A stretch of 64,000 bases of DNA from Calditrichaceae bacterium (GTDB lineage Bacteria > Calditrichota > Calditrichia > Calditrichales > JBFXGD01). Location: contig JBFXLE010000002.1 of assembly GCA_050173015.1 (NCBI GenBank), forward strand, positions 64,001-128,000, written 5' to 3'. The translations under genes were made by a program, and so were the position numbers. Below are positions 26,330-43,396 of this stretch, in pieces. Each line of letters begins with the position of its first letter. Position 1 is the first letter of the stretch. The notes beneath the pieces were generated by a model, which worked only from the letters and a program-made list of their open reading frames with translations, had not been told where the DNA came from and did not search any database.

Positions 26330-27481
26330 ATGTTACAATTTACCGAAGAACAGCAGATGATCCGTAAAATGGTGCGTGATTTTTCCCAGAAAGAAATCGC
26401 GCCGATCGCCATTGAAGTTGATGAAGCTGAGCGTTTTCCTATAGAAAATTTTAAAAAAATGGCGGAACTGAACTTACTGGGATTACCGATCTCCGAAACT
26501 TACGGCGGTGCCGGTCTGGATGCGGTATCTTATATGATTGCTTTGGAAGAAATGGCCGGGGCATGCGCATCAACAGCATTGTCTTATTCCGCGCACATTT
26601 CACTGGCTTCTGTCCCTATTGAACAATTTGGCACAGAGGAACAGAAACGAAAATATCTGGTTCCGCTCGCCAGAGGAGAGAAATTAGGGTCTTTTGGCTT
26701 GACCGAACCATCCGCGGGCAGCGATGCCGGTGGAACAAAGACAACGGCCGTAAAAGATGGTGACAGCTTCATTCTTAACGGGTCAAAAGTTTACATTACA
26801 AACGCGGAATACGCGGATATTTTTGTCGTGACGGCGGTAACTGAGAAATCACGCGGCACAAGGGGAATTTCTAGTTTTATTATCGAGCGGGGAATGCCGG
26901 GATTTGAAGTGGGTAAAAAAGAGAAAAAACTGGGAATGCGGGCATCTCCAACTTGTATGCTTCATTTTAGTGATTGCCGGGTTCCGGCTGAAAATTTGCT
27001 GGGAAATATAAATGAAGGCTACAAACAGTTCTTAATTACGCTCGACGGAGGACGCGTGGGAATCGCTGCGCAGGCGGTCGGAATAGCAAAGGCTGCTTTT
27101 TCCCGTTCCATGAAATACGCACAGGAAAGAGAACAATTTGGTCAGAAAATCGGCAATTTTCAAGCAATACAGTTTATGTTGTCCAATATGGCGACAAATA
27201 TAGAGGCAGCCGAACTCATGGTTTACCACGCCGCTCAACTGAAGCAGGAAGGAAAACCGTATAAGAGAGAAGCCGCGATGGCTAAACTGTTCGCGTCTGA
27301 AATGACAATGGATGTAACAAAAGACGCGATTCAAATTCATGGCGGATACGGCTATATCAAAGAATATGAAGTTGAAAGATACTGGCGAGACGCGAAACTG
27401 CTGGAGATAGGGGAAGGCACTTCCGAGGTGCAGCGTTTAGTTATTTACAGAGAGTTGTTAAATAATATAGACAGGTTATAA
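26330..27481 (+). CDS. Acyl-CoA dehydrogenase (short/branched-chain type)
   Basis: FGLTEPSAGSD, NGSKVYITN, REQFG, QIHGGYGY, IGEGTSEVQR. Confidence 0.95.
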   Translation: MLQFTEEQQMIRKMVRDFSQKEIAPIAIEVDEAERFPIENFKKMAELNLLGLPISETYGGAGLDAVSYMIALEEMAGACASTALSYSAHISLASVPIEQFGTEEQKRKYLVPLARGEKLGSFGLTEPSAGSDAGGTKTTAVKDGDSFILNGSKVYITNAEYADIFVVTAVTEKSRGTRGISSFIIERGMPGFEVGKKEKKLGMRASPTCMLHFSDCRVPAENLLGNINEGYKQFLITLDGGRVGIAAQAVGIAKAAFSRSMKYAQEREQFGQKIGNFQAIQFMLSNMATNIEAAELMVYHAAQLKQEGKPYKREAAMAKLFASEMTMDVTKDAIQIHGGYGYIKEYEVERYWRDAKLLEIGEGTSEVQRLVIYRELLNNIDRL

Positions 27482-29811
27482 TGGAAATTAAAAAAAACTG
27501 GGATCTGTTTATCCAAAACCTGGATAAATACAAGGTTGGCGGGTCACCCGCAAGGGATATATTGATTAAATTGAGCTATTTTTTGGTTTTACTCTTTGTG
27601 ATACCGCTGCTCTTTTCGACGGAGAAATCCTTTAAGTACACGGACATGAAGGTTGGAAGCATTGCTACCAAAAAAGTGGTCGCGCCCTATAATTTCTTTG
27701 TGCTTAAAACAAAAGATGAATTAAAAGAAGAGCGCAAATCCGCGATAGAAGTAGTCCCGTATTATTTCGTTTATAATGATTCTATTACAACCAAAGTTAA
27801 ATATGTGACGGATAATTTAATTCCCTTTCTTCAGAGAAAAAAACCGAATGGAAACATAGAAAACCTGGTAAACCTGCAAGAGAGTGAGAATCCGTTGATT
27901 CAAATTCAGACAGGGGTTAAAAGACAATTTAATATTAATATCACCACTACCAACCTGATGGTATTGTATGATATCCTGAATAATGCCGCCAATAAATATG
28001 AATTTCAGGGAATTTTAAAAAACGCCACGGGGGACATCAAAGCAGGCATAATTAATATAAATTTAAAAGATGTCACCCGGCCAAATATCGTCGTACTGAA
28101 AAATGGGGTAGAAGAATCACTTCCGGAAAACTCCCGCACCGACATGTTGACTTTTAAGCAGGAATTAGAGCTTATTGCTCAAAAAAAATTCGATCCGAAT
28201 CAGGCAACAGTTATAAATTACCTGCTCAATCAGATTATTCAGCCTAACCTTATCTACGATGACGCGCTGACAAAAAGAGCGGAAAACGAGGCGTTTAACA
28301 GTGTTTCACTCACTAAAGATATGGTGTATGAAAACGAACGCATTGTAGACGCGAATGAAAGAATAAACGCTGAAATTTATCAAAAGCTCTATTCTCTAGA
28401 AGTATCCGAAGTCGAGCGCAGTAATCAGGAAGGAAACTGGCAGATACTATTTGCCTTTCTCGGAAAACTGATGTTGTTGGGAGCGGTGTTATTTATTGTC
28501 GGGCTATATTTATTTTCATATCGGAAAAAGATTTTCGCTGATAATAAAAAATTACTGATGATCAGTATGATCATATTAATTCAAATGGTTCTCGCCGCCA
28601 TTATTTCAGGACCGCTAAACTGGCCGGCCTATTTGATCCCAACTACCATTTCGTCAATGCTGCTCGCTATTCTGATTGATTCGGGGATCGGTTTTGTGGG
28701 AACGGTAGCTGTGGCGCTCATTCTCGGGGGTATTCAGGGCGGAGGGTACGATATTGTTCTTATTACGATCGTCAGCGGTATGATTGGTATCTATTCTGTG
28801 CATCATATCCGGAACAGGAATCAGATATTTAACGCAATTTCGTTTATAACGCTCGCCTATCTCTGGGTTATCATTGCTCTGAGCGCGCTCCGATTTGATT
28901 CATTTGCGGAAATTATTAAAATATTCGGATATAATTTTTTACCCAATGCCATATTTTCACCGTTCATCGCCTTCATGCTTCTTGGGCTTTTCGAACGTAT
29001 GTTTGATATAACCACCGATGTCACATTACTTGAGTTATCGGATCTAAATCATCCGCTATTGAAGAAACTTTCGATGCAGGCTCCGGGTACCTTTCATCAT
29101 AGCATGGTCGTTGGAAACCTGGCTGAATCTGCGGCAAAAGCCATCGGTGCAAATTCTTTGCTAGCAAGAGTCGGCAGCTATTATCATGATATCGGCAAGA
29201 TGGAAAAACCTGAGTATTTTGTCGAAAACCAGATGGACGCGGAGAACAGACATTCAAAATTATCACCAAATATGAGCGCCCTTATCCTTGCCTCACATGT
29301 TAAAAACGGCATCGATATGGCAAAAAAATATAATATTCCAAAGCTCATAAGGGATTTTATCCCTGAGCACCATGGCACCAATATTATGACATATTTTTAC
29401 CAGAAGGCTCTCGATTCAGCAAGTGACAAAGATGAGATTTACGCGTCCGATTTCAAATATCCCGGACCAAAGCCTCAGTCAAAGGAGACTGCGATTGTCA
29501 TGATCGCTGATGCCGTTGAAGCGGCCACAAGAACTATCCGCAACCCGACTCCTTCAAAATTCAGGTCATTTATTGAGACACTCGCTGATCAGCGTTTTCA
29601 GGACGGAGAATTAGATGAAAGCAGTTTGACATTCAAAGAACTGAAAATGATAATTGACGCGTTTATGCCGGTACTATCAGGGGTTTTTCAACACAGGGTC
29701 GATTATCCTGAGTCAGATAAAACGAAAGGTTCAGGAAAATCAAATAATCAAAAAGAAGAAAAAGAAAAAGTCGCTAAAAATGGAAATTCAAATACACCAG
29801 CTCAATCCTGA
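27481..29811 (+). CDS. pgpH: 7TM-HD (HDIG) membrane phosphohydrolase, PgpH-like c-di-AMP phosphodiesterase
   Basis: Extracytoplasmic domain, 7 TM helices, APGTFHHS, YYHDIGK, EHHGT, YPGPKP, ADAVEA; TAATG coupling to the upstream gene; adjacent to ybeY. Confidence 0.88.
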   Translation: MEIKKNWDLFIQNLDKYKVGGSPARDILIKLSYFLVLLFVIPLLFSTEKSFKYTDMKVGSIATKKVVAPYNFFVLKTKDELKEERKSAIEVVPYYFVYNDSITTKVKYVTDNLIPFLQRKKPNGNIENLVNLQESENPLIQIQTGVKRQFNINITTTNLMVLYDILNNAANKYEFQGILKNATGDIKAGIININLKDVTRPNIVVLKNGVEESLPENSRTDMLTFKQELELIAQKKFDPNQATVINYLLNQIIQPNLIYDDALTKRAENEAFNSVSLTKDMVYENERIVDANERINAEIYQKLYSLEVSEVERSNQEGNWQILFAFLGKLMLLGAVLFIVGLYLFSYRKKIFADNKKLLMISMIILIQMVLAAIISGPLNWPAYLIPTTISSMLLAILIDSGIGFVGTVAVALILGGIQGGGYDIVLITIVSGMIGIYSVHHIRNRNQIFNAISFITLAYLWVIIALSALRFDSFAEIIKIFGYNFLPNAIFSPFIAFMLLGLFERMFDITTDVTLLELSDLNHPLLKKLSMQAPGTFHHSMVVGNLAESAAKAIGANSLLARVGSYYHDIGKMEKPEYFVENQMDAENRHSKLSPNMSALILASHVKNGIDMAKKYNIPKLIRDFIPEHHGTNIMTYFYQKALDSASDKDEIYASDFKYPGPKPQSKETAIVMIADAVEAATRTIRNPTPSKFRSFIETLADQRFQDGELDESSLTFKELKMIIDAFMPVLSGVFQHRVDYPESDKTKGSGKSNNQKEEKEKVAKNGNSNTPAQS

Positions 29812-30357: not shown

Positions 30358-31656
30358 TTGGACCCGTCATCGTCGTTTTATATACTTGTTTTTTTATTGT
30401 TATTGGTGATGTCAGCATTCTTTTCAGGCTCAGAAACTGCTTATTTTTCACTTACAAAATCCACAATAGCAAAACTATCCCATAGTAAACATGCCATGTC
30501 AAGGCAGGTTTCACAATTATTGAAAGAGCCCAAAAAACTATTGATAGCAATTATCATCGGAAATACAGTTGTAAACGTAGCTACCGCGTCTCTCGCGGCA
30601 ATTCTTGCTACCGGGTTAATTGCAAAGTATAGTCTGAATAAGATGCTGGTCCTAATGATCAATGTCTTTTTGGTCACCATTGTCATCTTATTTTTTAGTG
30701 AAATTCTACCAAAAGTGACGGCCATAAAGAGCAGCAAAAAAATTGCGATTAAGTTCGCTTATCCTCTGACCTTCTTCTACTATCTTTTTTATCCTGTTAC
30801 TATATTGTTTGATTTTCTGACACACGGATTATCAAGATTTTTATCAATCGATAAAGATAAATTCAGCCTGACGGAAGATGAACTTCGGACTCTGGTTGAT
30901 GTCGGCGCGGAAAAAGGTGCGCTGCAAAAAGATGAAAAAGAAATGATTCATAGTATTTTTGAAATGGGTGATACCATTGTCCGGGAAATTATGGTACCCC
31001 GAATGGATATGATCTGTCTTGAAAAAGGGGCAAGTCTTTTCCAGGTGCTTAAAGTGGTCAAGGATAAATTGCATAGCCGGATTCCCATTTACTCGGATAC
31101 GGTAGATAATATTGTTGGAATTTTGTTTGTAAAAGATCTTTTGCCGCTGATTAAAAGAAAAACTATTGACGATTTTGATCTGGCTAAACTGGCTCACCCG
31201 CCTTATTATGTTCCGGAACAGAAAAAGATCAATGAGCTGCTCAGAGAATTTCAGGCCGAAAAAATACACATGGCCCTGGTGGTCGATGAGTATGGCGGAA
31301 CCTCCGGTTTGGTAACTCTTGAAGATGTCATCGAGGAAATCGTCGGTGAAATACAGGATGAATATGACCGCGAAAAACCGCTATACAATGTAATAAATGA
31401 TAATACCTTCGTTGTCAATGGAAGTATGCAGCTGGAAGAAATTAATGATGTTCTTGATCTTGATCTTCCAACTGAAGAAGACTTCGAGACCCTCGCCGGA
31501 TTCTTACTCAGTCAGTTTGGATCTGTTCCTAAGGTTAAGGAGAAAACAAGCTGGAACGGATACGAATTTACGGTTGAAAAAGTTTATAGAAGAAGAATAG
31601 AACTGGTAAAAATTATAAAAAAAATAGAAGAGGTCAAGCAAATTAATAAACCATGA
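30358..31656 (+). CDS. HlyC/CorC (CNNM/DUF21-CBS-CorC) Mg/Co transport-associated protein
   Basis: SAFFSGSETA, SEILPK, VREIMVPR, SRIPIY, VDEYGG, TLAG; TTG start after GGAGG. Confidence 0.92.
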   Translation: MDPSSSFYILVFLLLLVMSAFFSGSETAYFSLTKSTIAKLSHSKHAMSRQVSQLLKEPKKLLIAIIIGNTVVNVATASLAAILATGLIAKYSLNKMLVLMINVFLVTIVILFFSEILPKVTAIKSSKKIAIKFAYPLTFFYYLFYPVTILFDFLTHGLSRFLSIDKDKFSLTEDELRTLVDVGAEKGALQKDEKEMIHSIFEMGDTIVREIMVPRMDMICLEKGASLFQVLKVVKDKLHSRIPIYSDTVDNIVGILFVKDLLPLIKRKTIDDFDLAKLAHPPYYVPEQKKINELLREFQAEKIHMALVVDEYGGTSGLVTLEDVIEEIVGEIQDEYDREKPLYNVINDNTFVVNGSMQLEEINDVLDLDLPTEEDFETLAGFLLSQFGSVPKVKEKTSWNGYEFTVEKVYRRRIELVKIIKKIEEVKQINKP

Positions 31657-31720: not shown

Positions 31721-33127
31721 ATGCGCGACACCGGAATAATCGAATTACAGAAAATCCCTTCTGTGAACTGGTTTCTTGAGAAACTTTCCGGATCCTATCC
31801 CGGTGTTGATACTCAATACATCAAGAGAATCATCCAGATGCACCTGGATGATATCAGATCCCGGCCTAACCACTACAAGATTTCGAAAAAAAGCCGTGAA
31901 AATCTTCAGGATGACATCATCATCGCTATAACCGCGGAGATTCAGGCACTACTAAGAGGATCGTTAATGCCGGTGATAAACGCGACCGGTGTTGTCTTGC
32001 ATACGGGCCTGGGCAGGGCGCCTCTTAATCCTGAATTGTTGAAAAATTTAGATCAAATCGGCCGTTATACAAACCTTGAGATCCAGTTGGAAAACGGCAG
32101 AAGGGGACAGCGAAACGATCATTTATCACGATTACTCAGCATATTAACCGGGGCTGAGGATGGCCTTGCTGTTAATAATAATGCCGCCGCGGTAATGCTT
32201 ATGCTCCATAGCCTGGCAAATCGTAAGGAAGTCATTCTCTCGCGCGGCGAAATGATTGAAATTGGCGGCGCTTTCCGTATGCCCGAAGTCATAAAAATGA
32301 GCGGTTGTAAACTGCATGAAGTCGGCACTACAAATAAAACACATCTGGATGACTATGAAAAGGCAATTAATGAGCGCACTGCCGCCATATTAATTTGCCA
32401 TCCGAGCAATTTTGAAGTGAAGGGATTCTCTCAAAAACCTGATATTAAAGAAATTATTGCAATCGGGAAAAAATATAAAATTCCTGTGATCTATGATCTT
32501 GGAAGCGGATCGTTGTTAGATACCACTAAATTTGGATCTGATTCAGAACCTGTTGTTTCGGATATTATCGCCATGGATATCGATATGGTGTCCTTTTCCG
32601 GTGATAAACTTCTCGGAGGCCCGCAGTCAGGCATTATTGTCGGCAAGAGACGCTGGATCCGGAAGTGTGCCAAAAATCATTTGCTGAGAGCTCTCAGGCT
32701 GGATAAAATTATGATCAGCCTCCTGCAGAAAACATTAATTCAATATTTAGAGGGGGATGCTGTCCTTCAGAAATTGGATGCTCTGCAGTCCCTTACGTTA
32801 AAAGCTGAAAAATTAAAAAGTCGCTGTGAAAAAATTACAGAAAAATTACCGGAATCAGTAAAGAAAAGCATAAAAATCATTCCATCCTCAGGAAAAGTCG
32901 GGAGCGGGGCTTATCCCTTAATGCCGCTCCCCTCATATGTCCTGCAAATTAAATCTGAACATCTTCGCCCTGATAAACTGGCAAAGAAATTCAGAACCCG
33001 GGCGGTGCCTGTATTTGTGAGGCTTGAAGATGAATCAGTGCTGATTGATCTGAGAACTGTGAGCAGTGATGAAGAGGCGGAATTGAAATCCGCTCTGATT
33101 GATTTGATACCGCGAATAACTGAGTGA
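31721..33127 (+). CDS. selA: L-seryl-tRNA(Sec) selenium transferase
   Basis: VINATGVVLHTGLGRA, NNNAAA, EIGGAFRMP, EVGTTN, DLGSG, FSGDKLLGGPQ, RALRLDK. Confidence 0.96.
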   Translation: MRDTGIIELQKIPSVNWFLEKLSGSYPGVDTQYIKRIIQMHLDDIRSRPNHYKISKKSRENLQDDIIIAITAEIQALLRGSLMPVINATGVVLHTGLGRAPLNPELLKNLDQIGRYTNLEIQLENGRRGQRNDHLSRLLSILTGAEDGLAVNNNAAAVMLMLHSLANRKEVILSRGEMIEIGGAFRMPEVIKMSGCKLHEVGTTNKTHLDDYEKAINERTAAILICHPSNFEVKGFSQKPDIKEIIAIGKKYKIPVIYDLGSGSLLDTTKFGSDSEPVVSDIIAMDIDMVSFSGDKLLGGPQSGIIVGKRRWIRKCAKNHLLRALRLDKIMISLLQKTLIQYLEGDAVLQKLDALQSLTLKAEKLKSRCEKITEKLPESVKKSIKIIPSSGKVGSGAYPLMPLPSYVLQIKSEHLRPDKLAKKFRTRAVPVFVRLEDESVLIDLRTVSSDEEAELKSALIDLIPRITE

Positions 33128-33577: not shown

Positions 33578-34972
33578 ATGGATTCACCATTTTTCTTGAT
33601 TGGCGTCGTAATTCTGGTACTTGCACTGGGCTTTCTTATATTTTTCATGTTTCGGCAATACCAGAAAGTAGGACCTAATGAAATCTTAATTATTTCAGGC
33701 GGACGTAAAAATGTTGTGACCTCACCCGATGGTATTCAAAATGAAATCGGATTTAAATACAGAATCGGAGGGGGCGCTTTGGTAAATCCGTTCACTCAGC
33801 GGGTAGAAAGACTGCCTATTGAGGTGATCCCTGTCGGTGCCAAAATTCCCGAAGTATTATCCAAAAACGGTATTCCTATCACGGCGGAATTTACCGCGCA
33901 GGTTAAAATTGATACCAATGATTATTCATTATATCTCGCCATTACCAACTTTTTAAGCCGTGGAACCGAGGGCATTCTGGAAGTCTCCACAACCGTTCTT
34001 GAAAGCATGGTGCGTGAAGTTATCGGTACTTTCACTGTGGAAGAGATATTTACAAAACGGAACGAATTCTCAAAAAGAGTCAACGAAGCGCTTCGCGTGG
34101 ATTTTTCGAAAATGGGATTGGTTCTTATGTCGTTTGGTTTAAAAGAAATCAGTGATTCCCAGGGATATATCGAGGCGCTGAGCAAACCGCATATCACGGC
34201 AGCCAAATATCAGGCGGAAGTTGACCGGGCCGAAAAGGACAAAGAAATAACGATAAAATCAGCCCAGGCTAAAAAAGAAGGGGAAATCGCCAGACTTGCC
34301 GCCGAAGCCGAAGTTGCCAAAGCATCATGGAACAATGAAGCAAAAAAGGCTGAATCACAGGTCGATGTGAACCAGAAAAAAGCGCGCGCGGATATGGCTT
34401 ATGAACTTGAGCGATTTAAAATTCAGCAAAATCTCAAAAAAGAAGAATATGGCGTCAAAAAAATTGAAATGGAAGAAGCAACCAAGCTCGAAGAGATGAG
34501 TATCAGGAAAAAACAAAAAGAGCTGGAAGCGAATATTTTAAAACCCGCGGAAGCCAGAAAATTTCAGGTTAAAACGGAAGCAGACGCGGAACGTTACAGG
34601 ATTGAAACCGAATCCAAAGGAAAACTCGAAGTCAGAAAACAGGAAGATGCCGCTGACGCGGACAGGATTAAAATGATCGGTAACGCGGAAGCGGAATCAA
34701 TGGCTAAGAAGTCAAAAGCTTACGAATCATACAATCAGGCGGCCATGTATGAAATGATCATGGAGAAGATGCCGGAGATAGCCAGAGCGGTTTCTGAGCC
34801 CCTGTCAAAGCTGGATAAAATTGTGATGATTCAAAATGACGGCAAGTTAGGAACATCAAAACTGACCGGACAGATAACCGATATCATTGCTCAGTTGCCA
34901 GAGGTGGTCGAGGCGCTTACCGGGGCGGATATAAAAAAAATTATAAAGAAAAAAACATCGGATGAAGGCTAA
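33578..34972 (+). CDS. Flotillin-family SPFH protein
   Basis: N-terminal TM, PNEILIISG, SPFH domain, long Ala/Glu/Lys coiled coil, EPLSKLDKI, LTGAD; AGGAGG RBS. Confidence 0.92.
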   Translation: MDSPFFLIGVVILVLALGFLIFFMFRQYQKVGPNEILIISGGRKNVVTSPDGIQNEIGFKYRIGGGALVNPFTQRVERLPIEVIPVGAKIPEVLSKNGIPITAEFTAQVKIDTNDYSLYLAITNFLSRGTEGILEVSTTVLESMVREVIGTFTVEEIFTKRNEFSKRVNEALRVDFSKMGLVLMSFGLKEISDSQGYIEALSKPHITAAKYQAEVDRAEKDKEITIKSAQAKKEGEIARLAAEAEVAKASWNNEAKKAESQVDVNQKKARADMAYELERFKIQQNLKKEEYGVKKIEMEEATKLEEMSIRKKQKELEANILKPAEARKFQVKTEADAERYRIETESKGKLEVRKQEDAADADRIKMIGNAEAESMAKKSKAYESYNQAAMYEMIMEKMPEIARAVSEPLSKLDKIVMIQNDGKLGTSKLTGQITDIIAQLPEVVEALTGADIKKIIKKKTSDEG

Positions 34973-35076: not shown

Positions 35077-37422
35077 GTGGTCTCCGAACGGATAAAGAAT
35101 ATCAACATCTCGCCTACTATAAAAATTGCGGCAAAAGCGATCGCGATGAAATCAGAGGGAATAGATGTGGTGGATTTCAGTGTCGGCGAACCTGATTTTA
35201 CCACACCGCAGTTTATTAAAGACGCCGCGAAGAAAGCAATTGATCAGGATCTGACGAAATATACCATCAACAGGGGAATTGTCCCCTTGAGGAAGGCGAT
35301 TGCAAAGAAACTAAAGGAAGACAACAACCTTGAATATGATATTTCCGAAATTATTGTATCCAATGGCGCCAAGCAGGCTCTGTATAATGCAATTCTCTCA
35401 GTTGTAAATCCGGGTGATGAAGTCATTGTTCCCGCGCCCTATTGGGTATCATATCCCGAAATGGTGCTGCTCGCTCAGGGAAAGCCGGTCATCATTTCAA
35501 CAAAGGAGGAGAACGGATTCAAAGTGACTCCTGATGAACTTCGTAAGGCCATCTCCGCGAACACAAGGGCAATTATACTCTGCAATCCGTCAAATCCAAC
35601 CGGCGCGGCATATAAACGGAGTGAACTGCAAGCCCTGGCCGAAATAGTTGAAAGTGAAGATATCTTTGTTATTGCTGATGAAATATATGAGAAACTGGTC
35701 TATGATGATTTTAAATTTATCAGTTTCGCGTCACTAAGTAATAAAATCAGACAAAAGACCATATTGATTAATGGGGTCTCAAAAGCGTATGCCATGACAG
35801 GCTGGCGGATTGGATACGCGGCCGGACCTGCTGAACTTATCAATGGCGCGGAAAAAATTCAAAGCCACAGCACTTCGAACGCTTCAACTATTTCGCAATA
35901 CGCGAGCCTGGAAGCGTTAAACGGCCCGCAATATGAAATCTCCCGGATGACCAGTGAATTTCAGAAACGGCGTAATTACATCATGTATAAACTCGGAACA
36001 ATACCCGGTGTGTCCTGCCATAATCCTGAAGGCGCGTTCTATGTGTTTCCGAATATTTCTTCTTTCTTTGGGAAAGAATATAACGGCACTTATATACGTA
36101 ATTCTTACGGACTGGCCTACTATCTTTTAAGAGAAGCAAAAGTTGCGTTAATACCGGGAGCGGCTTTCGGAGCGGATGATTATATCCGTATTTCCTACGC
36201 GACATCGATGAAAAATATTGAAAAAGGCATGGAGCGCGTTACAGAAGCTTTGATGAAGCTGAAAACACCCGCGAGTGTAAAACATACAAAACTTAATAAC
36301 ATGGTCACCAGTCTTAAAAAACAGGTTTCAGTCGACTCAACCCTGAATATTGAAAAACGTGACGCTCTTGTGGCTGAAGCGGAAGCCCAGCTCAAATATG
36401 ATCGATATTTTGAATGGAACGCCAATATAAACGGGGTAATTGTGCAGTTAAGGACGAATAACGGGCATCTTTACGATTTCTGGATGGAGAACTGGTATCC
36501 GGCGCAGCTTGAAGCCGATATCGAGCCACACGGAATTATTTATGCCGTCGAAGGAGCCGTTGGAAGGGAGCCTTACGGATTTTACAATTCGGAAACAAAA
36601 ACGGGGATCCTGTTCAATAGCGATTATTACGGTTCTTTACGGAGCCTGGCATTAGGCCTGGTAACCGATGTTGGAGAACGTTTGTTTGATTTACACGCCC
36701 TGCGCGCCATGTCGGCTGATTATTCCGGGGCAGGATTTGCTGTGATGGGTCCGAAGGGAACGCATAAGACAGAGCTCTTCTACCGGCTTCTGCAGAATGA
36801 AAACATTGCCCTTCATTCAAACGATATAGTATTTGTGCGCTATGGGGGAGGATACGCTGCGGCGGATAATCCCGAACGGAAATTATACATCCCCACAAAT
36901 TCCGCCAGCGTGTTTCAAAGACTCGGTGAATTATTTGATCGCAGTAAATGTGAAAATGTGGTAATGAGCAAAGACGATTGCAAAAATCAAAAATGCCAGG
37001 CATTAGAAGAGTGCTCTCTTGACCGCGGCTATCCGTATTGTTATGAAGCGTCAAAAACCTCCGCCGCAATGCTCGATCCATACTGGATCGGCGGTATGCG
37101 CAAACATGTGAAACGCATTGATATCAGCACGGTATTCATATTAAAAAATGATCCAATCGGAAACGCCATCTCATTAATGGATCCTGATGAAGCGGTGCAG
37201 ATTCTGGAAGCCGGTTTTTCAAGCGGCGCCGTAATGGAAGAGGGACGGGGCAATTTGCCGTTCTATAATCCGCATTTATTATTGAAGACAACAGAGCGGC
37301 TGGAATTACAGAAAAAATCATTCCGCAAATTATTTAAGTCCGCCGCGTGTTATTCAGTAAATACCGGCGCCGGGAACTTGTCGGAAATTCAAAACCGTAT
37401 GATAGAAATTTTGTCAAAATGA
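35077..37422 (+). CDS. Aspartate aminotransferase (class I/II PLP, subgroup Ib) fused to a degenerate PEPCK/HPrK-like P-loop domain
   Basis: About aa 1-395: GEPDF, NGAKQ, PYWVSY, NPSNPTG, DEIY, SKAYAMTGWRIG, GAFY, RISYA. About aa 400-781: YYGSLR, GPKGTHKT, HSND, ERKLY, CENV, NP, VNTG. GTG start after AAGGGG. Confidence 0.85.
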   Translation: MVSERIKNINISPTIKIAAKAIAMKSEGIDVVDFSVGEPDFTTPQFIKDAAKKAIDQDLTKYTINRGIVPLRKAIAKKLKEDNNLEYDISEIIVSNGAKQALYNAILSVVNPGDEVIVPAPYWVSYPEMVLLAQGKPVIISTKEENGFKVTPDELRKAISANTRAIILCNPSNPTGAAYKRSELQALAEIVESEDIFVIADEIYEKLVYDDFKFISFASLSNKIRQKTILINGVSKAYAMTGWRIGYAAGPAELINGAEKIQSHSTSNASTISQYASLEALNGPQYEISRMTSEFQKRRNYIMYKLGTIPGVSCHNPEGAFYVFPNISSFFGKEYNGTYIRNSYGLAYYLLREAKVALIPGAAFGADDYIRISYATSMKNIEKGMERVTEALMKLKTPASVKHTKLNNMVTSLKKQVSVDSTLNIEKRDALVAEAEAQLKYDRYFEWNANINGVIVQLRTNNGHLYDFWMENWYPAQLEADIEPHGIIYAVEGAVGREPYGFYNSETKTGILFNSDYYGSLRSLALGLVTDVGERLFDLHALRAMSADYSGAGFAVMGPKGTHKTELFYRLLQNENIALHSNDIVFVRYGGGYAAADNPERKLYIPTNSASVFQRLGELFDRSKCENVVMSKDDCKNQKCQALEECSLDRGYPYCYEASKTSAAMLDPYWIGGMRKHVKRIDISTVFILKNDPIGNAISLMDPDEAVQILEAGFSSGAVMEEGRGNLPFYNPHLLLKTTERLELQKKSFRKLFKSAACYSVNTGAGNLSEIQNRMIEILSK

Positions 37423-37478
37423 AATAGTCACAAAGAAGTATGAATCTGAAATTTTGATCATTTAACGGGAAGTCTGAT

Positions 37479-39320
37479 ATGTCAAAAGATGTATATAACG
37501 AGGCGTATTACAAAAAATTTTATAATGAGCTTATCCCAATTCTCAATGGTAAAAATATTAGAACGGTTGATATGGGCTGGCTCGAACGACAGGCCAGGAG
37601 TTTCGCGAATAAGACAAATTATGGCTCCTATGTGTGGTCATCAAAGATATCAAACCGCCTCGCGGCCAAGACTGTTTACCTCGGGAGTGAAAAGGTTCGT
37701 CTGCCAAAGCCGACCGCAGAACATCTTAAACTGATTGAAAACGCGCCGGAGCAGCTTGAAAAAGTCCTGCATCTCGTAAAAACCCTGCCATTTGTCCACG
37801 TTCGCCGTCAAATGGGCAACAATGATAAGTTTAATCCCGTATGCGATTTTTATGTCAGCACAGTTGATCCAAAGAATGTCCGGCTGGCCTATATGTGGGG
37901 CAGCACCATGTTTGATGTCTCCTCAAGACCCGGACCTAATTTTATAATGATTCATATCCCCGAAGAACACATGCTAAGATCTCAAATCCTGGCGCTTCCG
38001 GAGTATAATCTTAATATCGCCCTTGGGTCTGACTACCTCGGGGAGGATAAAAAAGGCTTTTTGAGACAGGCTATGTGGAGAGCTGATGAGCAGGGGATGC
38101 TTGGATTGCATTCCGGCAGCAAGATTGTAAAAGTACGCGATCCCAGGGAAGGAAGATTAAAAAAGTACGGTGTATTCTTGTTTGGAATGACCGCGACCGG
38201 AAAATCAACATGGTCTTGTCACCAGTTGGGACTTGATCAAGAGAGAGGTGAAACTACTGAAGTCGGTCAGGATGATATAACGTTTCTCGCTCCCGACGGC
38301 TCGGCGCTCGGTTCTGAAAATAATTTCTATGTAAAAACGGATGTCATGCCCGATCAGCAGGAAGCCATGTACAACGCGTTAATAGACAAGTCCGCGCTGA
38401 TCGAAAATGTTATGCTGGATGCTAAGGGTGATCTTGATTTTCTGGATGAGAGCCTATGTGGAAACGGTCGCGCGGTAGTGTTCAGAGAAAAATTACGTGT
38501 AAAAAGGGGCAACAAGCTCATCAACATCAGCGCTCCTACAATCAACCTGCCGACTCTTGATGAAATGGACGGATTAATTTTCGCTTTCATTACTCGCAGA
38601 AATACCATCATGCCGTTTGCTCAGGAGTTAACTCCGGAACAAGGAGTTCTTGCCTATCTTTGGGGTGAATCGACGCACAGTTATGCTTCAAGCCCGGAAA
38701 AGGCGGGTGAATCGGTCAGAATAGTAGGAACCGACCCGTTTATTATCGGATCTCGAGGCAAGAAGGTAAATCGTTTTCATGATATTATCATGATGCTTGT
38801 CGATAAATATCCCGGCAAGATCCGTTTTATGATGTATAACACCGGCGGCATGGGTGAGATTATTGAAGACATCGAAGAGAACGGAAGCATCAGGAAAAAA
38901 ATGGTTAGAAAAACAGACAGGGTACCGCTGAGTCTTATGGCTGCCATTCAACGCGGAGATTTGAGAGGCACCAATACCTATGAAGATGGAATTCTAGGCA
39001 CAAAATCAATTGTGGCAGTAGAAGGAAAGCCGATCCCCGAATATGATATCAGCAATTTTTATACGCCTGAACAGATCGATTATTATATTAAAGATCTTGT
39101 GGATGGGCGAAAAAAATACACGAATCTCATCGCATCCGAGGGATTGAAGCCGGAAATCATCAGGGCCGCGGAGAAGTCATTCCGTATTGATCCTTCTCAG
39201 CGCAAAGAGATGTTCACCGTGCCATTCTCAACCGGTAAAGAAAAAGAACCTGTTGTGCTTATAAAATCGGATGAACCCGTCTCCCGACCAAGGAAACCCG
39301 GAAGCTGGCGGTGGCGTTGA
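37479..39320 (+). CDS. pckA: Phosphoenolpyruvate carboxykinase (ATP-type fold), divergent
   Basis: YLGEDKKG, GLHSGSK, FGMTATGKST, GQDD, SENNFYVKT, IENV, NGRA, GTDPF, YNTG. Confidence 0.82.
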   Translation: MSKDVYNEAYYKKFYNELIPILNGKNIRTVDMGWLERQARSFANKTNYGSYVWSSKISNRLAAKTVYLGSEKVRLPKPTAEHLKLIENAPEQLEKVLHLVKTLPFVHVRRQMGNNDKFNPVCDFYVSTVDPKNVRLAYMWGSTMFDVSSRPGPNFIMIHIPEEHMLRSQILALPEYNLNIALGSDYLGEDKKGFLRQAMWRADEQGMLGLHSGSKIVKVRDPREGRLKKYGVFLFGMTATGKSTWSCHQLGLDQERGETTEVGQDDITFLAPDGSALGSENNFYVKTDVMPDQQEAMYNALIDKSALIENVMLDAKGDLDFLDESLCGNGRAVVFREKLRVKRGNKLINISAPTINLPTLDEMDGLIFAFITRRNTIMPFAQELTPEQGVLAYLWGESTHSYASSPEKAGESVRIVGTDPFIIGSRGKKVNRFHDIIMMLVDKYPGKIRFMMYNTGGMGEIIEDIEENGSIRKKMVRKTDRVPLSLMAAIQRGDLRGTNTYEDGILGTKSIVAVEGKPIPEYDISNFYTPEQIDYYIKDLVDGRKKYTNLIASEGLKPEIIRAAEKSFRIDPSQRKEMFTVPFSTGKEKEPVVLIKSDEPVSRPRKPGSWRWR

Positions 39321-39391
39321 TTCGTGTGATCCGGGATATAAATGATAATATCAGACAGATTATGATCAAGAAAACCATGCAGGAATGATCG

Positions 39392-39808
39392 ATGGAGAGA
39401 ACGTTAGCTATTATAAAACCTGACGGTGTCGCGGCCGGACTTATCGGTGAAATCATCAGCAGAATAGAGAAGGAAGGTATTAATATTATCGGGATGAGGC
39501 TGGAACATCTCGACCGGCGGAAAGCGGAAGGATTCTATTTTGTTCACCGCCAAAAACCTTTTTTTAATTCACTCATAGATTATATGACTTCGGGACCGTG
39601 TGTCCTGATGATACTGGAAAAAAACGATGCTGTCAAAAGCTGGAGAAGCCTGACCGGTGTGACAGACCCGGCAAAAGCGGCCAGAGGGACCATTAGGGGG
39701 GATATGGGCACCAGCATCGAAAGAAATGTGGTACACGGTTCCGATTCGCAGGAATCCGCTTCATTTGAGATTAATTACTTTTTTAAAGGAACAGAAATTT
39801 TTAAATAG
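39392..39808 (+). CDS. ndk: Nucleoside diphosphate kinase
   Basis: ERTLAIIKPDG, MTSGP, GTIRGD, RNVVHGSD. Confidence 0.97.
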   Translation: MERTLAIIKPDGVAAGLIGEIISRIEKEGINIIGMRLEHLDRRKAEGFYFVHRQKPFFNSLIDYMTSGPCVLMILEKNDAVKSWRSLTGVTDPAKAARGTIRGDMGTSIERNVVHGSDSQESASFEINYFFKGTEIFK

Positions 39809-39898: not shown

Positions 39899-41809
39899 AT
39901 GAATAAACATACAATCATTGGTATGGCCGGACATATCGACCATGGCAAAACCGCTATTATCAGAGCCTTAAGCGGCATCGAAACCGATCGTCTTAAGGAA
40001 GAGATAGAACGCGGGATTACGATCGATATAGGTTTTGCTTATTGGAAGAACAATGTAACTATTATTGATGTACCCGGGCATGAACGTTTTGTAAGAAATA
40101 TGATAGCCGGCGTTAGTACAGTTAATTTGTTTTTGCTGGTCATAGCTGCAGATGACGGTATCATGCCTCAAACGATAGAGCATCTGGAAATTCTAAAATT
40201 TTTTGGGGTGGGTAACGGTGTTGTCGCCTTAAACAAGTCAGATCTGGTGGATGATGATTGGTTGTCATTGGTACGGGAAGATATAGATCAATTTCTTTCC
40301 GTACACGGATTTAATAATGTACCCGTGATCCCGGTATCCGCCGTAAAAGGCGATGGTATCAGTGAACTGGAAATGGTACTCATGCAAAAAATAGAGGGAT
40401 TAAAGCATGTTGAAAATGAGAGACCATTCAGGCTGAATGTGGATCGCAGTTTTTCCGCAAAAGGCTTCGGATCTGTTGTAACCGGTACAATCTTATCATC
40501 GGTGATTAAAACAGGAGATCGCGCTGAAATTCTGCCGGCCTTTAATGAAACGCGCATTAAGGGTATACAAGTCCATCAGCATGAAGTCGTGGAAGCGCAT
40601 TCTGGTCAGCGGGCTGCTGTTAACCTGGCCGGTGTAAACAAAGAAGAATTACCGAGAGGGGTAGTGATAACAGAACCGGGTCTGATAGCCACCGCATCAG
40701 AATTTCTTGCTGTCATTACCACAGTATCAAATCTCAAATTTAAATTAAAGAAACATATGACGGTAAGAGTGCATCTTGGAACCGCTGAATACACGGGAAA
40801 AATATTTTGGTTTGATGACCAGCGTTCACCGGGAGCCAGTGAAATGCTGCATGTCCGGATTAAAGTAAATGAGACGGCTGTCACGGCACCGGGGGATCCT
40901 GTTCTAATAAGGAGCTTCTCTCCGGTCACGACGATTGCAGGTGGTCGGGTACTGGAAATCAATCCACCAAAACTAAGACGTGATCCAAAAGTCTGGGATG
41001 CTTACTTTGGGATTCTAAAAAATGGCGGTCTGAATGACAAAATTAAGCAGATGTTCAGTTTTTCTGGATACAGATCGATCACAAACAAAGAAATTCAGCA
41101 AGCATGGTTCGAAAGACCTGAAAAAATTGATGATATTTTACAGAAGCTCGTAAAACAGAATGCGCTCATTGTTTTCGAGCAAAAAAATATCCGGCATTTT
41201 ATTTCTACAAAGAAATTAGAAGAGGGGCAGTATCAGATAATAGATATGCTCGGAAAAGAATTGTCTGAAAAAAAATATAAAAAAGGGCTGAATTTTAAAG
41301 AAGTTTTTAATCTCGCAAAGAAAATGCAAATGAGTGAAGTATTTCTTGAACGCGTATTGGGAAGAGGCGTAAATACCGAATCCATCTTTTTCAACGGAGA
41401 AGTGTATTTCACGGAAAATATAAAAAAATCGCGGGAAATGGACGTTATCAGGGAAAAAGTTGAAACCCGTTTCAGACGTGACCGGTTTACCGTGCCGGAT
41501 CTTCCGGCATTAGCAAAAGATTTCAATGTTTCCCTGCAAGACGCCAAAACAATCTCAGGTGAGTTGGTTAAAGATGGTATTCTCATCTCAATCAATGGTC
41601 AGTTTTATATACACAAAGATTCACTTGGGGACCTGATTTCTTTTCTAAAGCAACATTTCGAAAAAAACGATGAATTAGAGGTCACCGGCCTGAAAGATTT
41701 TTTAGACAGCAGCCGAAAATATGTAATTCCCCTGATCGAATATTGTGACCGGGCGGGATATACTATTAGGAAAGGAAACAACAGGGTAAAAGGCGTTTTT
41801 CCGGAATAG
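39899..41809 (+). CDS. selB: Selenocysteine-specific elongation factor
   Basis: [35 protein letters not shown]-terminal winged helix [14 protein letters not shown]. Confidence 0.96.
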
Positions 41810-42913: not shown

Positions 42914-43396
42914 ATGGATTTAAAAATCGTAAAAATCGATAAACCTGAAGATATGAACTTCATATTAGGCCATTCCCATTTTATAAAAACCGTTGAAGAT
43001 ATTCACGAAGCAGTCATGAACGTTAATCCTTCCATAAAATTCGGTCTGGCGTTTTGTGAAGCTTCTCAGGAGGCGCTTGTACGATTCAGCGGGACGGATG
43101 ATGATTTAATCGAGTTAGCCAAGAAAAACGCGCTTAATTTAAGCGCCGGACACAGTTTTATACTGTTTCTCGGAAATGCTTTTCCGGTAAATGTGCTGAA
43201 TACCATCAAAATGGTGCCGGAAGTAACGAGAATATTTTGCGCGACCGCAAATCCTGTGGAAGTTATCCTGGCTGAAACCGGACAGGGGAGAGCTATTTTA
43301 GGCGTCGTTGACGGCATGAAGACAAAAGGTATTGAACAGGAAAAAGATATCAAAAAAAGAAAAGATTTCCTGCGAATGATCGGATATAAATTTTGA
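42914..43396 (+). CDS. DUF355 adenosine-specific kinase family protein
   Basis: GHSHFIKTVEDIHEA, FGLAFCEAS, AGHSF, FCATANPVEV, GRAILGVVDG, IGYK. Confidence 0.88.
   Translation: MDLKIVKIDKPEDMNFILGHSHFIKTVEDIHEAVMNVNPSIKFGLAFCEASQEALVRFSGTDDDLIELAKKNALNLSAGHSFILFLGNAFPVNVLNTIKMVPEVTRIFCATANPVEVILAETGQGRAILGVVDGMKTKGIEQEKDIKKRKDFLRMIGYKF

Follow-up and report, generated by a model that had tools for sequence, protein, structure and literature searches.

An aspartate-type aminotransferase fused to a remodelled mini-PEPCK module, encoded next to a divergent PEPCK paralogue in a Calditrichaceae bacterium, points to a putative two-part enzyme at the aspartate–oxaloacetate–PEP junction

At the PEP–pyruvate–oxaloacetate node, carbon is partitioned among gluconeogenesis, amino acids and the TCA cycle; one of its metabolites, oxaloacetate, is both labile and present in small amounts. 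ATP-dependent phosphoenolpyruvate carboxykinase (PEPCK) of the PckA type (PF01293, TIGR00224; PDB 1ii2, 1aq2, 1j3b) is a two-lobed protein of about 530 aa with the motif order Y-G...K, His position, P-loop, DD, E, ENV and NTG; its Mn2+ ligands Lys, His and Asp are K213, H232 and D269 in E. coli numbering. HPr kinase/phosphorylase (HprK/P; PF07475; 1jb1, 1ko7) has a P-loop-bearing C-terminal lobe of related structure. Eukaryotic phosphofructokinase and hexokinase I are duplicated enzymes in which one half has turned regulatory. A truncated PEPCK fold occurs as a non-catalytic assembly part in the respiratory complex I of Euglena gracilis, where it forms the accessory subunit NDUEG2 (PDB 8j9h chain E2; PMC10884005), a eukaryotic mitochondrial structural protein with neither an aminotransferase fusion nor a tie to a working PEPCK.

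The window analysed here, a stretch of 64,000 nucleotides from a Calditrichaceae bacterium, carries on its plus strand an ORF of 781 aa with a GTG start (35077..37422), in which an aspartate-type class I aminotransferase (AspAT) domain (aa 1–395; 35077..36261; PF00155) is followed by a module of 381 residues (aa 401–781, numbered 1–381 below; 36277..37419), referred to as the mini-PEPCK module. A gene for a flotillin/SPFH membrane-scaffold protein of 464 aa (33578..34972, plus strand) ends 104 bp 5′ of this ORF, and its product matches both PF01145 (Band_7, 91.2 bits) and PF15975 (Flot, 28.7 bits) above the cut-offs. Separated from the fusion by a gap of 56 bp, and with no terminator-like site found between the two on the plus strand, the ORF of a divergent PEPCK-family paralogue of 613 aa (37479..39320, plus strand; PF01293) follows, which ends in the basic-aromatic tail RPRKPGSWRWR (39285..39317). 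The next gene on the same strand encodes a nucleoside-diphosphate kinase (NDK) of 138 aa (39392..39808) matching PF00334 over its full length (185.3 bits, model positions 1–135 of 135). No published description of an AspAT–mini-PEPCK fusion was found in the literature. The locus suggests a two-part enzyme, hitherto unstudied, that would act where aspartate, oxaloacetate and PEP meet.

In the aminotransferase half, PF00155 matches aa 30–387 with 255.5 bits and covers model positions 2–360 of 361. All 117 aligned fusion proteins carry Lys at position 236 (K236; codon 35782..35784, within SKAYAMTGWR), which corresponds to the PLP-binding residue of class I enzymes. The top NCBIfam models are aspartate transaminases, but because their equivalog cut-offs are missed (NF004769, 460 vs 617 bits; NF041091, 442 vs 550 bits), aspartate specificity is assigned here provisionally, from best hits. 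The same genome encodes four further class I aminotransferase paralogues with 30–36% identity.

The relationship of the C-terminal module to PEPCK is hidden from ordinary searches. A Pfam search with aa 401–781 gave no match, with PF01293 absent at E ≤ 1 and PF07475 absent too; BLASTP of the module against the neighbouring 613-aa protein gave nothing significant (best E 0.55), and phmmer against the PDB gave 0 matches at E ≤ 10. NF006821 aligned with module residues 103–210 at E 0.0014 and 17.4 bits, the cut-off being 369. When profiles of the two families were compared by hhalign, module residues 79–316 were aligned with residues 146–399 of the neighbour (97.0% probability, E 1.1e-10, 227 columns) at approximately 18% identity, pairing YYGSLR with YLGEDKK, LHALRA with GLHSG, GPKGTHKTE with GMTATGKST, HSND with GQDD and CENV with IENV. 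The remaining pair, VNTG and YNTG, lies beyond the profile alignment and within the structural alignment. An AF2 model of the module (pLDDT 92.9, pTM 0.92) was matched by Foldseek to ATP-PEPCKs with E values from 1.8e-17 to 3e-15 and TMq of 0.68–0.75 (0.73 at E 1.8e-17), and comparison by VIA with the Trypanosoma cruzi ATP-PEPCK (1ii2_B) aligned 343 of 381 residues (Z 28.0, rmsd 3.2). The predicted structure shows the entire PEPCK fold in compact form, with both the N-terminal lobe and the P-loop lobe. Alignment with 1ii2_B runs only to chain residue 444 of 514 and the module ends 17 residues past N362-T-G; thus, the C-terminal adenine-binding segment of PEPCK is missing. HprK/P covers only half of the module (Z 11–12, residues 138–381), whereas the N-terminal lobe matches PEPCK instead, and module relatives reach 17–26 bits with PF07475, under the cut-off of 33.3. 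Assignment of the module to HprK/P was rejected, given the lack of a PF07475 match and Z 11–12 against Z 28 for PEPCK. NDUEG2 aligns over 279 residues (Z 21.6, 11% identity).

Residue conservation was counted over 117 aligned fusion proteins, and 77 module positions are identical in at least 114 of them. The P-loop of the module (GPKGTHKTE, module 158–166; 36748..36774, aligned with GMTATGKST of the neighbour) has G158, P159, G161 and K164 in 117/117 proteins each; position 163 is Lys in 86, His in 9, Asn in 8, Gln in 7, Arg in 6 and Tyr in 1, and Gly in 0/117. The window sequence GPKGTHKT hence departs from the kinase-1a P-loop G-x-x-G-x-G-K-[ST], which is replaced at its third glycine. Two of the three Mn2+-ligand positions are replaced as well, Lys by Ser (S123, 109/117) and His by Arg (R143, 117/117), and the third is kept as D183 (110/117, Glu in 7 more). 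Further near-invariant residues are R122 and E200 (116/117 each) and E226/N227 (117/117). What remains of the PckA site is the Lys and Thr of the P-loop, a single Asp, the Glu and the ENV motif. In contrast to PckA, the shorter module carries a Cys-rich insert near CENV (C225, C235, C240, C246 and C255; 36949..37041). C225, C235 and C246 are Cys in 116/117 fusions, while positions C240/C255/A258 read C-C-A in 86 proteins and H-S-C in 21, a correlated ligand swap; the insert is probably a Cys/His metal site. Mean identity to the window protein over 116 homologues is 61% for the module and 66% for the AspAT half. Since the substituted residues are invariant and the conservation of the module comes near that of the AspAT half, the site has been remodelled and has not decayed. 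We infer that the module no longer performs the PEPCK reaction.

These results largely agree with a sequence-only reading of the locus, which had described a complete AspAT with a C-terminal domain of about 385 aa and PEPCK motif order, and had expected a PEPCK_ATP/HprK-like fold. All twelve motif strings it quoted are present in the translations, five of its six motif pairs were recovered by hhalign, and Foldseek returned a PEPCK fold. Its observation of altered catalytic positions also holds throughout the 117 fusions, with no Gly at position 163 and Arg always in place of the Mn-ligand His; its term "degenerate", however, does not suit substitutions that are invariant.

The 613-aa protein encoded downstream matches PF01293 with 74.7 bits (cut-off 26.5) over residues 166–400 only, and misses every equivalog and subfamily cut-off (TIGR00224, 22.7 vs 590; NF006822, 21.2 vs 806; NF006821, 278.2 vs 369). 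Its catalytic motifs Y-G-E-x-K-K, His, GxxGxGK[ST]T, DD, E, EN and Arg align with those of 1ii2, and 18 homologues all share Y186, E189, K191, K192, H211, G241, K242, S243, T244, D265, D266, E280, E309, N310 and R331. A canonical PckA is encoded elsewhere in the same genome (PF01293, 743 bits; passing TIGR00224 with 710 and NF006822 with 812) and shares 20% identity with the paralogue. Going by its sequence, the neighbour is a divergent PEPCK-family paralogue and not the housekeeping PEPCK, so that the earlier designation of this gene as PEPCK stands for family and intact motifs but not for the canonical enzyme. The motif RP[RKP][RKE] in the last 14 residues, together with a terminal R/K, is present in 119 of 120 bacterial homologues of the paralogue and in 0 of 88 archaeal forms fused to the module.

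These archaeal long PEPCKs are represented by 88 mainly archaeal protein clusters of about 890 aa, in which the module is N-terminal, PF01293 is C-terminal and the aminotransferase is absent; among the sources that are named are Asgard groups, Bathyarchaeia, Altiarchaeota and a few bacterial labels. They are annotated merely as phosphoenolpyruvate carboxykinase, and a characterisation was not found, as judged from source names only. They share the module signature WNANING..QLRTN..HL.DFW.ENW.PA, Arg at the His position and ERK, and their PEPCK part is of the same subtype as the window paralogue (40% identity over 544 aa for residues 366–892 of P0139, E 2e-130). The order, module then PEPCK, is that of the two genes in the window. 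The aminotransferase, the Cys-rich insert (as judged from the consensus) and the RP..WRWR tail, by contrast, belong to the bacterial split form. A quick tree did not recover AspAT-fused and PEPCK-fused modules as sister clades. An AF2 model of an archaeal fused protein reached a pTM of only 0.65 and thus does not establish a fixed module–PEPCK interface. A canonical GxxGxGK P-loop is found in 29 of the 88 archaeal modules and in stand-alone relatives of the module, which means that the family is not uniformly inactive; the stand-alone relatives also carry the His and DD motifs and, from sequence, look like working kinases.

A search for fusion homologues yielded 909 proteins at E ≤ 0.001, the best 120 of which are mostly 750–790 aa long. 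In other genomes, 54 of the 58 loci that are informative have the fusion in frame and free of stop codons, and module identity ranges from 41 to 96% across loci labelled Calditrichota, Ignavibacteriota/Bacteroidota, Acidobacteriota/Aminicenantes, Zixibacteria and TA06. At 37 of 51 bacterial loci the paralogue lies directly 3′ of the fusion on the same strand, with gaps of 15–505 bp. Among the other 14, the paralogue sits elsewhere in five genomes, and for 9/51 fusion genomes a PEPCK-type partner was not found (six without any PF01293, three with canonical PckA only), although these assemblies may be incomplete. According to this, docking the PEPCK-type partner is not the only role of the module, as the fusion persists in these genomes. 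Close paralogues, in turn, were found only alongside the fusion in both phylum surveys (35/35 genomes): in the phylum of the source organism the paralogue is present in 22 of 86 genomes and the module in all 22, with one extra module genome whose contig ends where the paralogue begins, and in a second phylum 13 of 151 sampled genomes have a close paralogue, all 13 with the module, and one genome (G201) has the module only. Fusion and paralogue are often located on opposite strands 1–7 kb apart, or on different contigs, in this second phylum, so that co-transcription is not general. A flotillin homologue is encoded directly 5′ of the fusion on the same strand at 44 of 46 informative bacterial loci, the exceptions being L040 and L044, and is thus a more constant neighbour than the paralogue. 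Where the paralogue is missing, the flotillin–fusion pair alone closes the same-strand run and the genes 3′ of it are on the other strand. Linkage, co-occurrence and the archaeal fusions support an evolutionary tie between the module and the PEPCK-type gene. The adjacency of the two genes noted in the sequence-only reading is frequent and not universal, and its inclusion of NDK in the candidate complex was not upheld: NDK lies 3′ of the paralogue at only three other loci (L003, L008, L049) and is a local addition in the source genus.

The most likely explanation, to which we assign about an even chance, is that the fusion combines AspAT with a rebuilt mini-PEPCK that serves the neighbouring PEPCK subtype as its partner or regulatory half. 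What was once the catalytic site would now bind an anionic ligand, whether a nucleotide, PPi, PEP or oxaloacetate. As class I aminotransferases form dimers, two PEPCK molecules could be held beside AspAT by the fusion, which would couple Asp + 2-oxoglutarate ↔ oxaloacetate ↔ PEP + CO2 in one direction or the other. The RP..WRWR tail, restricted to the split bacterial form, is a candidate for docking. The assembly may be located at the membrane, as the conservation of the flotillin gene suggests. As an analogy only, the logic resembles that of phosphofructokinase and hexokinase I, where a copy of the fold keeps a ligand site, drops catalysis and serves the active copy; those enzymes arose by comparatively recent tandem duplication, while module and PEPCK share only a low identity in the profile alignment. 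A bolder version, which we regard as rather unlikely as a whole, holds that the divergent PEPCK subtype obligatorily consists of two parts, a catalytic chain and the remodelled module as its regulatory half, joined in archaea and split in several bacterial phyla, the bacterial regulatory half being fused to AspAT and the catalytic half bearing the docking tail, in a flotillin-associated metabolon that shuttles oxaloacetate directly between the transamination and (de)carboxylation steps. If true, it would be the first case among microbes of a metabolon organised around a pseudo-enzyme version of one of its own members.

Retention of the fusion in the 9/51 genomes without a paralogue found would also fit a module serving as an allosteric sensor that adjusts the activity of the aminotransferase on binding a metabolite of the PEP/oxaloacetate/nucleotide pool, so that the linkage to the paralogue reflects shared pathway regulation and no physical complex. 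The old active site is lined by the invariant basic residues R122, R143, K164, R201 and K202, and its metal ligands were replaced and not randomised. This explanation leaves unaccounted for that no close paralogue turned up outside genomes with the module (35/35) and that module–PEPCK fusions without aminotransferase exist in 88 clusters; we consider it improbable to a similar degree as the metabolon. Many of the 77 near-invariant positions, among them K164, T165, D183, E200 and E226/N227, are polar, the stand-alone relatives have intact motifs and the Cys/His site could bind a catalytic metal, which is what would be expected of an active enzyme with a novel metal-independent or differently metallated phosphoryl- or carboxyl-transfer, the fusion then being bifunctional and acting on a product or substrate of the aminotransferase. 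But the long side chain in place of the P-loop glycine in 117/117 fusions, the loss of two Mn-ligand positions and the missing adenine-binding part, changes that in P-loop enzymes generally argue against NTP use, make this doubtful. It is quite unlikely that flotillin is the primary partner and that the module serves membrane localisation instead of catalysis or regulation, anchoring the aminotransferase, and the paralogue if present, to flotillin membrane microdomains: the constancy of the flotillin gene and the flotillin–fusion pair closing the same-strand run at loci without the paralogue speak for it, while two bacterial loci lack flotillin and none was found near archaeal fusions or stand-alone modules in the three archaeal loci examined. 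That no functional link exists, the fusion being an evolutionary accident in a neighbourhood of inherited synteny, is already disfavoured and hardly credible. Most loci do stem from a handful of related, little-sampled phyla, whose members are not independent; however, loci labelled with many different phyla keep the architecture at module identities of 41–96%, the substituted residues do not vary and an independent module–PEPCK fusion exists.

A widely conserved AspAT tied to a rebuilt PEPCK fold would represent a new organisation or regulation of the PEP–pyruvate–oxaloacetate node, as would a PEPCK subtype that seemingly never occurs without the module. The host lineages, Calditrichota, Aminicenantes, Ignavibacteria, Asgard and Bathyarchaeia, are abundant, uncultured groups of sediment and subsurface. 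In current annotation the fusions are named only "pyridoxal phosphate-dependent aminotransferase", the module belongs to no Pfam family, and the paralogue is counted as an ordinary PckA in metabolic reconstructions.

Within the window (C2:64001-128000 of a 4.34-Mb assembly with a completeness of 97.5%) four open reading frames lie on the same strand with short gaps and are bracketed by selA (31721-33127) and selB (39899-41809). They encode a flotillin (33578-34972), a 781-aa fusion of an aspartate-type aminotransferase (AspAT) and a C-terminal module (35077-37422), a 613-aa PEPCK paralogue (37479-39320) and NDK (39392-39808). The intergenic distances are, in this order, 104, 56 and 71 bp, and terminator-like sites were not detected on the + strand between the genes of the block. 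The top homologue of the fusion is 96% identical and carries the label Calditrichaceae.

The aminotransferase half of the fusion is covered by an end-to-end PF00155 match (aa 30-387, 255.5 bits). Its best NCBIfam models are aspartate transaminases, with scores under the equivalog cut-offs, and the PLP lysine is present in 117/117 aligned fusion homologues. The module (aa 401-781, numbered 1-381 below) matched no Pfam family and, by phmmer, no PDB sequence; its sole family-level signal was a weak match to NF006821 (PEPCK) with an E-value of 0.0014. An AlphaFold2 model of the module, calculated from a 45-row alignment, reached a pLDDT of 92.9 and a pTM of 0.92, and a Foldseek search with this model placed ATP-PEPCKs on top (E 1.8e-17 to about 3e-15, TMq 0.68-0.75). 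By VIA, 343 of the 381 residues were aligned with T. cruzi PEPCK (Z 28.0, 3.2 A), followed by NDUEG2, a truncated PEPCK-like subunit of Euglena complex I (Z 21.6), GTP-PEPCK (Z 21.4) and PPi-PEPCK (Z 14.6), while HprK/P was matched at just Z 11-12 and over residues 138-381 only. Since the PEPCK matches extend over the whole length and the HprK/P match is partial, the module is, according to its predicted structure, a compact version of the entire PEPCK fold and not an HPr-kinase domain. The sequence-only reading, which had described a complete AspAT with a C-terminal domain expected to have a PEPCK- or HprK-like fold, was confirmed.

Direct comparison of the module with the product of the downstream gene by BLASTP gave nothing significant; BLASTP and phmmer are both too insensitive at such distance, which accounts for the negative results. 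A profile-profile comparison related the two proteins (97.0%, E 1.1e-10, 227 columns) and recovered the first five of the motif pairs that had been proposed from the sequence. Module D116-Y-Y-G-S-L-R122-S123 is aligned with neighbour D185-Y-L-G-E-D-K191-K192, R143 with H211, G158-P-K-G-T-H163-K164-T165-E166 with G236-M-T-A-T-G241-K242-S243-T244, N182-D183 with D265-D266, E200 with E280, and E226-N227 with E309-N310. We take K191/K192, H211, K242/S243 and D265/D266 of the neighbour to be the counterparts of E. coli K212/K213, H232, K254/T255 and D268/D269, with K213, H232 and D269 (E. coli numbering) being the Mn2+ ligands. By this mapping the module lacks two of the three Mn ligands as well as the P-loop glycine. 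It stops 17 residues past the NTG motif, and therefore the adenine-binding C-terminal part of PEPCK is missing; the structural alignment of the module reaches residue 444 of the 514-residue PEPCK chain and then stops.

The altered positions had been read as signs of a degenerate domain. This view was not borne out by an alignment of 117 full-length fusions, comprising the protein of the window and 116 homologues, which remain of the 120 best hits once four with lengths outside 740-800 aa are set aside. The substituted residues are themselves fixed, with R122 in 116/117, S123 in 109/117 and R143 in 117/117 fusions. Within the P-loop K164 is invariant (117/117) and T/S165 is found in 113/117, while position 163 is occupied by K (86), H (9), N (8), Q (7), R (6) or Y (1) and never by Gly. 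D183 is present in 110/117 proteins, the other seven having E, E200 in 116/117, and R201, K202, E226 and N227 in 117/117 each. At 77 positions of the module, 114 or more of the 117 fusions carry the same residue. On average the modules are 61% identical to that of the window, and the aminotransferase halves 66%. As judged from this alignment, the module is remodelled and not decayed. A Cys-rich insert follows the CENV motif, in which C240/C255/A258 read C-C-A in 86 proteins and H-S-C in 21. C235 and C246 stay fixed alongside this correlated swap, a pattern that would be expected for a metal site. An origin as a recent duplicate of the neighbouring gene is ruled out by the 18% identity in the profile alignment and is also contradicted by the membership of the module in a family of its own that includes stand-alone members; an exhaustive search with the module returned 187 representatives of this family at E<=0.001.

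Many stand-alone relatives in this family (350-410 aa) combine a canonical P-loop (APTGTGKST) with the His and HSDDW, and some relatives show sub-threshold matches to Hpr_kinase_C or PEPCK_ATP. By these features, the module belongs to an unannotated family of the PEPCK/HprK superfamily, of which the AspAT-fused branch appears as a derived form. The nearest ESM Atlas clusters are labelled 'hypothetical protein', a minority carrying Hpr_kinase_C labels, and the Atlas gave no named function for the module. In a quick tree of 56 module sequences the AspAT-fused group falls into a starred (98) clade together with one stand-alone protein, P0122; alone it forms one side of a branch with a support of 69, and the PEPCK-fused modules described below form one side of a branch with a support of 100. 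The two groups form a polytomy, so that the order of events is not assignable. In two of three Thermoplasmata/Methanomassiliicoccales loci (L059:9049-10833 and L060:7995-10689) a stand-alone module homologue precedes genes for 2-oxoacid:ferredoxin oxidoreductase (POR_N, POR, TPP_enzyme_C) by 0.8-1.9 kb, a further 2-oxoacid setting for the module family. The genome of the window contains a weak third match to the module profile (C10:46170-46328, E 6.1e-4) in a 331-aa frame, which covers profile positions 156-209, the P-loop region, and may represent the HprK/P of this genome or another P-loop protein.

The PEPCK encoded downstream of the fusion retains all catalytic motifs and therefore looks catalytically competent by sequence. 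Its assignment to the PEPCK family held, but it is not the housekeeping enzyme. The canonical PckA of this genome is encoded on contig C11 (PF01293, 742.9 bits; above the TIGR00224 and NF006822 cut-offs), whereas the paralogue reaches 74.7 bits with PF01293, stays below every equivalog and subfamily cut-off and shares 20% identity with the canonical PckA over 262 residues. Homologues of the paralogue are 64-81% identical and carry the same phylum labels as those of the fusion, and the contigs of the two sets frequently agree in length. In three genomes the paralogue is found in two frames or pieces (G012:C17:52868-54732; G094:C1:1412375-1414132, with one TGA in the match of the first piece; G162, on two contigs), which may be due to frameshifts, pseudogenes or assembly errors. 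In another genome (G164:C8:24578-26269) a close homologue is part of an open frame of 1210 aa, which converges on the fusion gene ~0.9 kb away and may be an additional fusion.

With the single module sequence as query, 61 loci were found in a scan that took one genome from each species; the denominators for neighbourhoods include just those with enough flanking DNA. Aminotransferase and module are fused in frame, with no stop, in 54/58 loci. The other four are stand-alone genes of archaea (L059-L061) and a broken Zixibacteria copy (L062:5009-7135) with short ORFs of 141 and 154 aa and just partial AspAT and module matches, which is probably a degraded gene. Flotillin is encoded directly upstream of the fusion in 44/50 loci (44/46 bacterial; exceptions L040 and L044). 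The paralogue follows directly downstream on the same strand in 37/55 loci, i.e. 37/51 bacterial ones, so the expected adjacency holds for these and not for the other 14, where the genes past the fusion sit on the opposite strand. The whole genomes of these 14 were searched, and as their completeness is not given, not found does not equal absent: no PF01293 match was obtained in six (G001, G004, G005, G091, G092, G096), and a canonical PckA but no paralogue in three (G002, G003, G097). The remaining five carry the paralogue elsewhere, on other contigs (G093, G098), ~6.5 kb from the fusion (G095, G094) or about 3.4 kb upstream on the other strand (G099). NDK had been proposed as a nucleotide-exchanging member of the complex. 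This linkage is not conserved: ndk follows the paralogue in L003, L008 and L049 only, and in L003 alone among the 31 loci that extend 500 bp or more past the paralogue, which rules out NDK as a conserved partner.

Among 86 genomes of the window's phylum, its own included, 22 contain the paralogue and 23 the module, the latter including 22/22 paralogue genomes; in the extra module genome (G048) the contig ends at the paralogue start (L015). Of 151 genomes sampled from the phylum of locus L036, 14 gave the module. A close paralogue (56-68% identity) was found in 13 genomes, all of them among these 14, and G201 has the module only. Seven more genomes of this phylum, among them the unpublished G123, which enters into this count only, have distant paralogue relatives (35-42% identity) and gave no module match at E<=1e-20. 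All genomes in which a close paralogue was seen thus carry the module (35/35), whereas not every module genome has the paralogue. Both surveys therefore point to a one-way dependence, in which the paralogue implies the module and not the reverse. No statistic is given for these counts because kin are not independent.

Module and PEPCK are also found in a single archaeal chain. In P0139 (899 aa) the module occupies residues about 12-345 and PF01293 residues 371-850, the same order as that of the genes in the window. When its first 360 residues were used as query, 104 proteins were returned, 16 AspAT fusions and 88 proteins with PF01293 (median 894 aa), whose source names, where given, include Hod-, Hel-, Loki- and Freyarchaeota, Bathyarchaeia, Altiarchaeota, Hydrothermarchaeales and a few bacterial labels. 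The PEPCK half of P0139 is 40% identical to the paralogue of the window over 544 residues (E 2e-130). The archaeal module shares WNANING..QLRTN..HL.DFW.ENW.PA, the Arg at the His position and ERK with that of the fusion; it has no Cys insert, and GxxGxGK is retained in 29/88. An RP[RK]..WRWR-like basic-aromatic C-terminal tail, RPRKPGSWRWR in the window (39285-39317), is found in 119/120 bacterial split paralogues and 0/88 archaeal module-fused forms, and could serve as a docking element of the split paralogue. The AlphaFold2 model of P0139 (40 rows; pLDDT 83.4, pTM 0.65) is too low in confidence to claim a fixed module-PEPCK interface, and a complex prediction from the neighbour and module alignments, run without controls, gave a score of 0.01 (mark 0.32), which speaks neither for nor against a complex.

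The fusion is real, widely conserved and unannotated, and represents a new variant inside the PEPCK superfamily; in the full-text literature outside subscription journals no paper on the fusion or its module came up. The observation made from the sequence stands, and its interpretation, in which the module would dock to or regulate the PEPCK and channel amino-acid carbon, is partly supported. Most useful for this question are the identity of the neighbour as a paralogue beside a canonical PckA, its one-way dependence on the module, the restriction of the tail to the split form, the correlated swap of putative metal ligands and the position of ndk outside the conserved unit. The module folds like PEPCK but departs from it in sequence, P-loop, metal ligands and adenine site. 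In spirit, two kinds of protein come nearest to it. One is NDUEG2, an inactive subunit of Euglena complex I with a PEPCK fold (PMC10884005). The others are duplicated enzymes whose second half became regulatory.

The flanking selA matches PF03841 (446.9 bits), and selB contains GTP_EFTU, SelB wing and beta-barrel domains. selA is also found upstream of flotillin in L005, L006 and L011, and selB downstream in L003 and L011; the flotillin-fusion-PEPCK-ndk cassette looks inserted between two selenocysteine genes in several Calditrichota. Because of these flanking genes selenocysteine read-through of the TGA stop of the fusion was considered, and it is excluded by a further in-frame TGA six codons on and by the other frame of the next gene. 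Further upstream, a 7TM receptor with an intracellular HD hydrolase (27481-29811; PF07698, PF07697, PF01966) and a CNNM/CorC-type transporter with a CBS domain (30358-31656) are encoded. A 160-aa protein encoded three genes downstream (42914-43396) has a PF04008 'adenosine specific kinase' match of full length (248.7 bits) and probably has no relation to the fusion.
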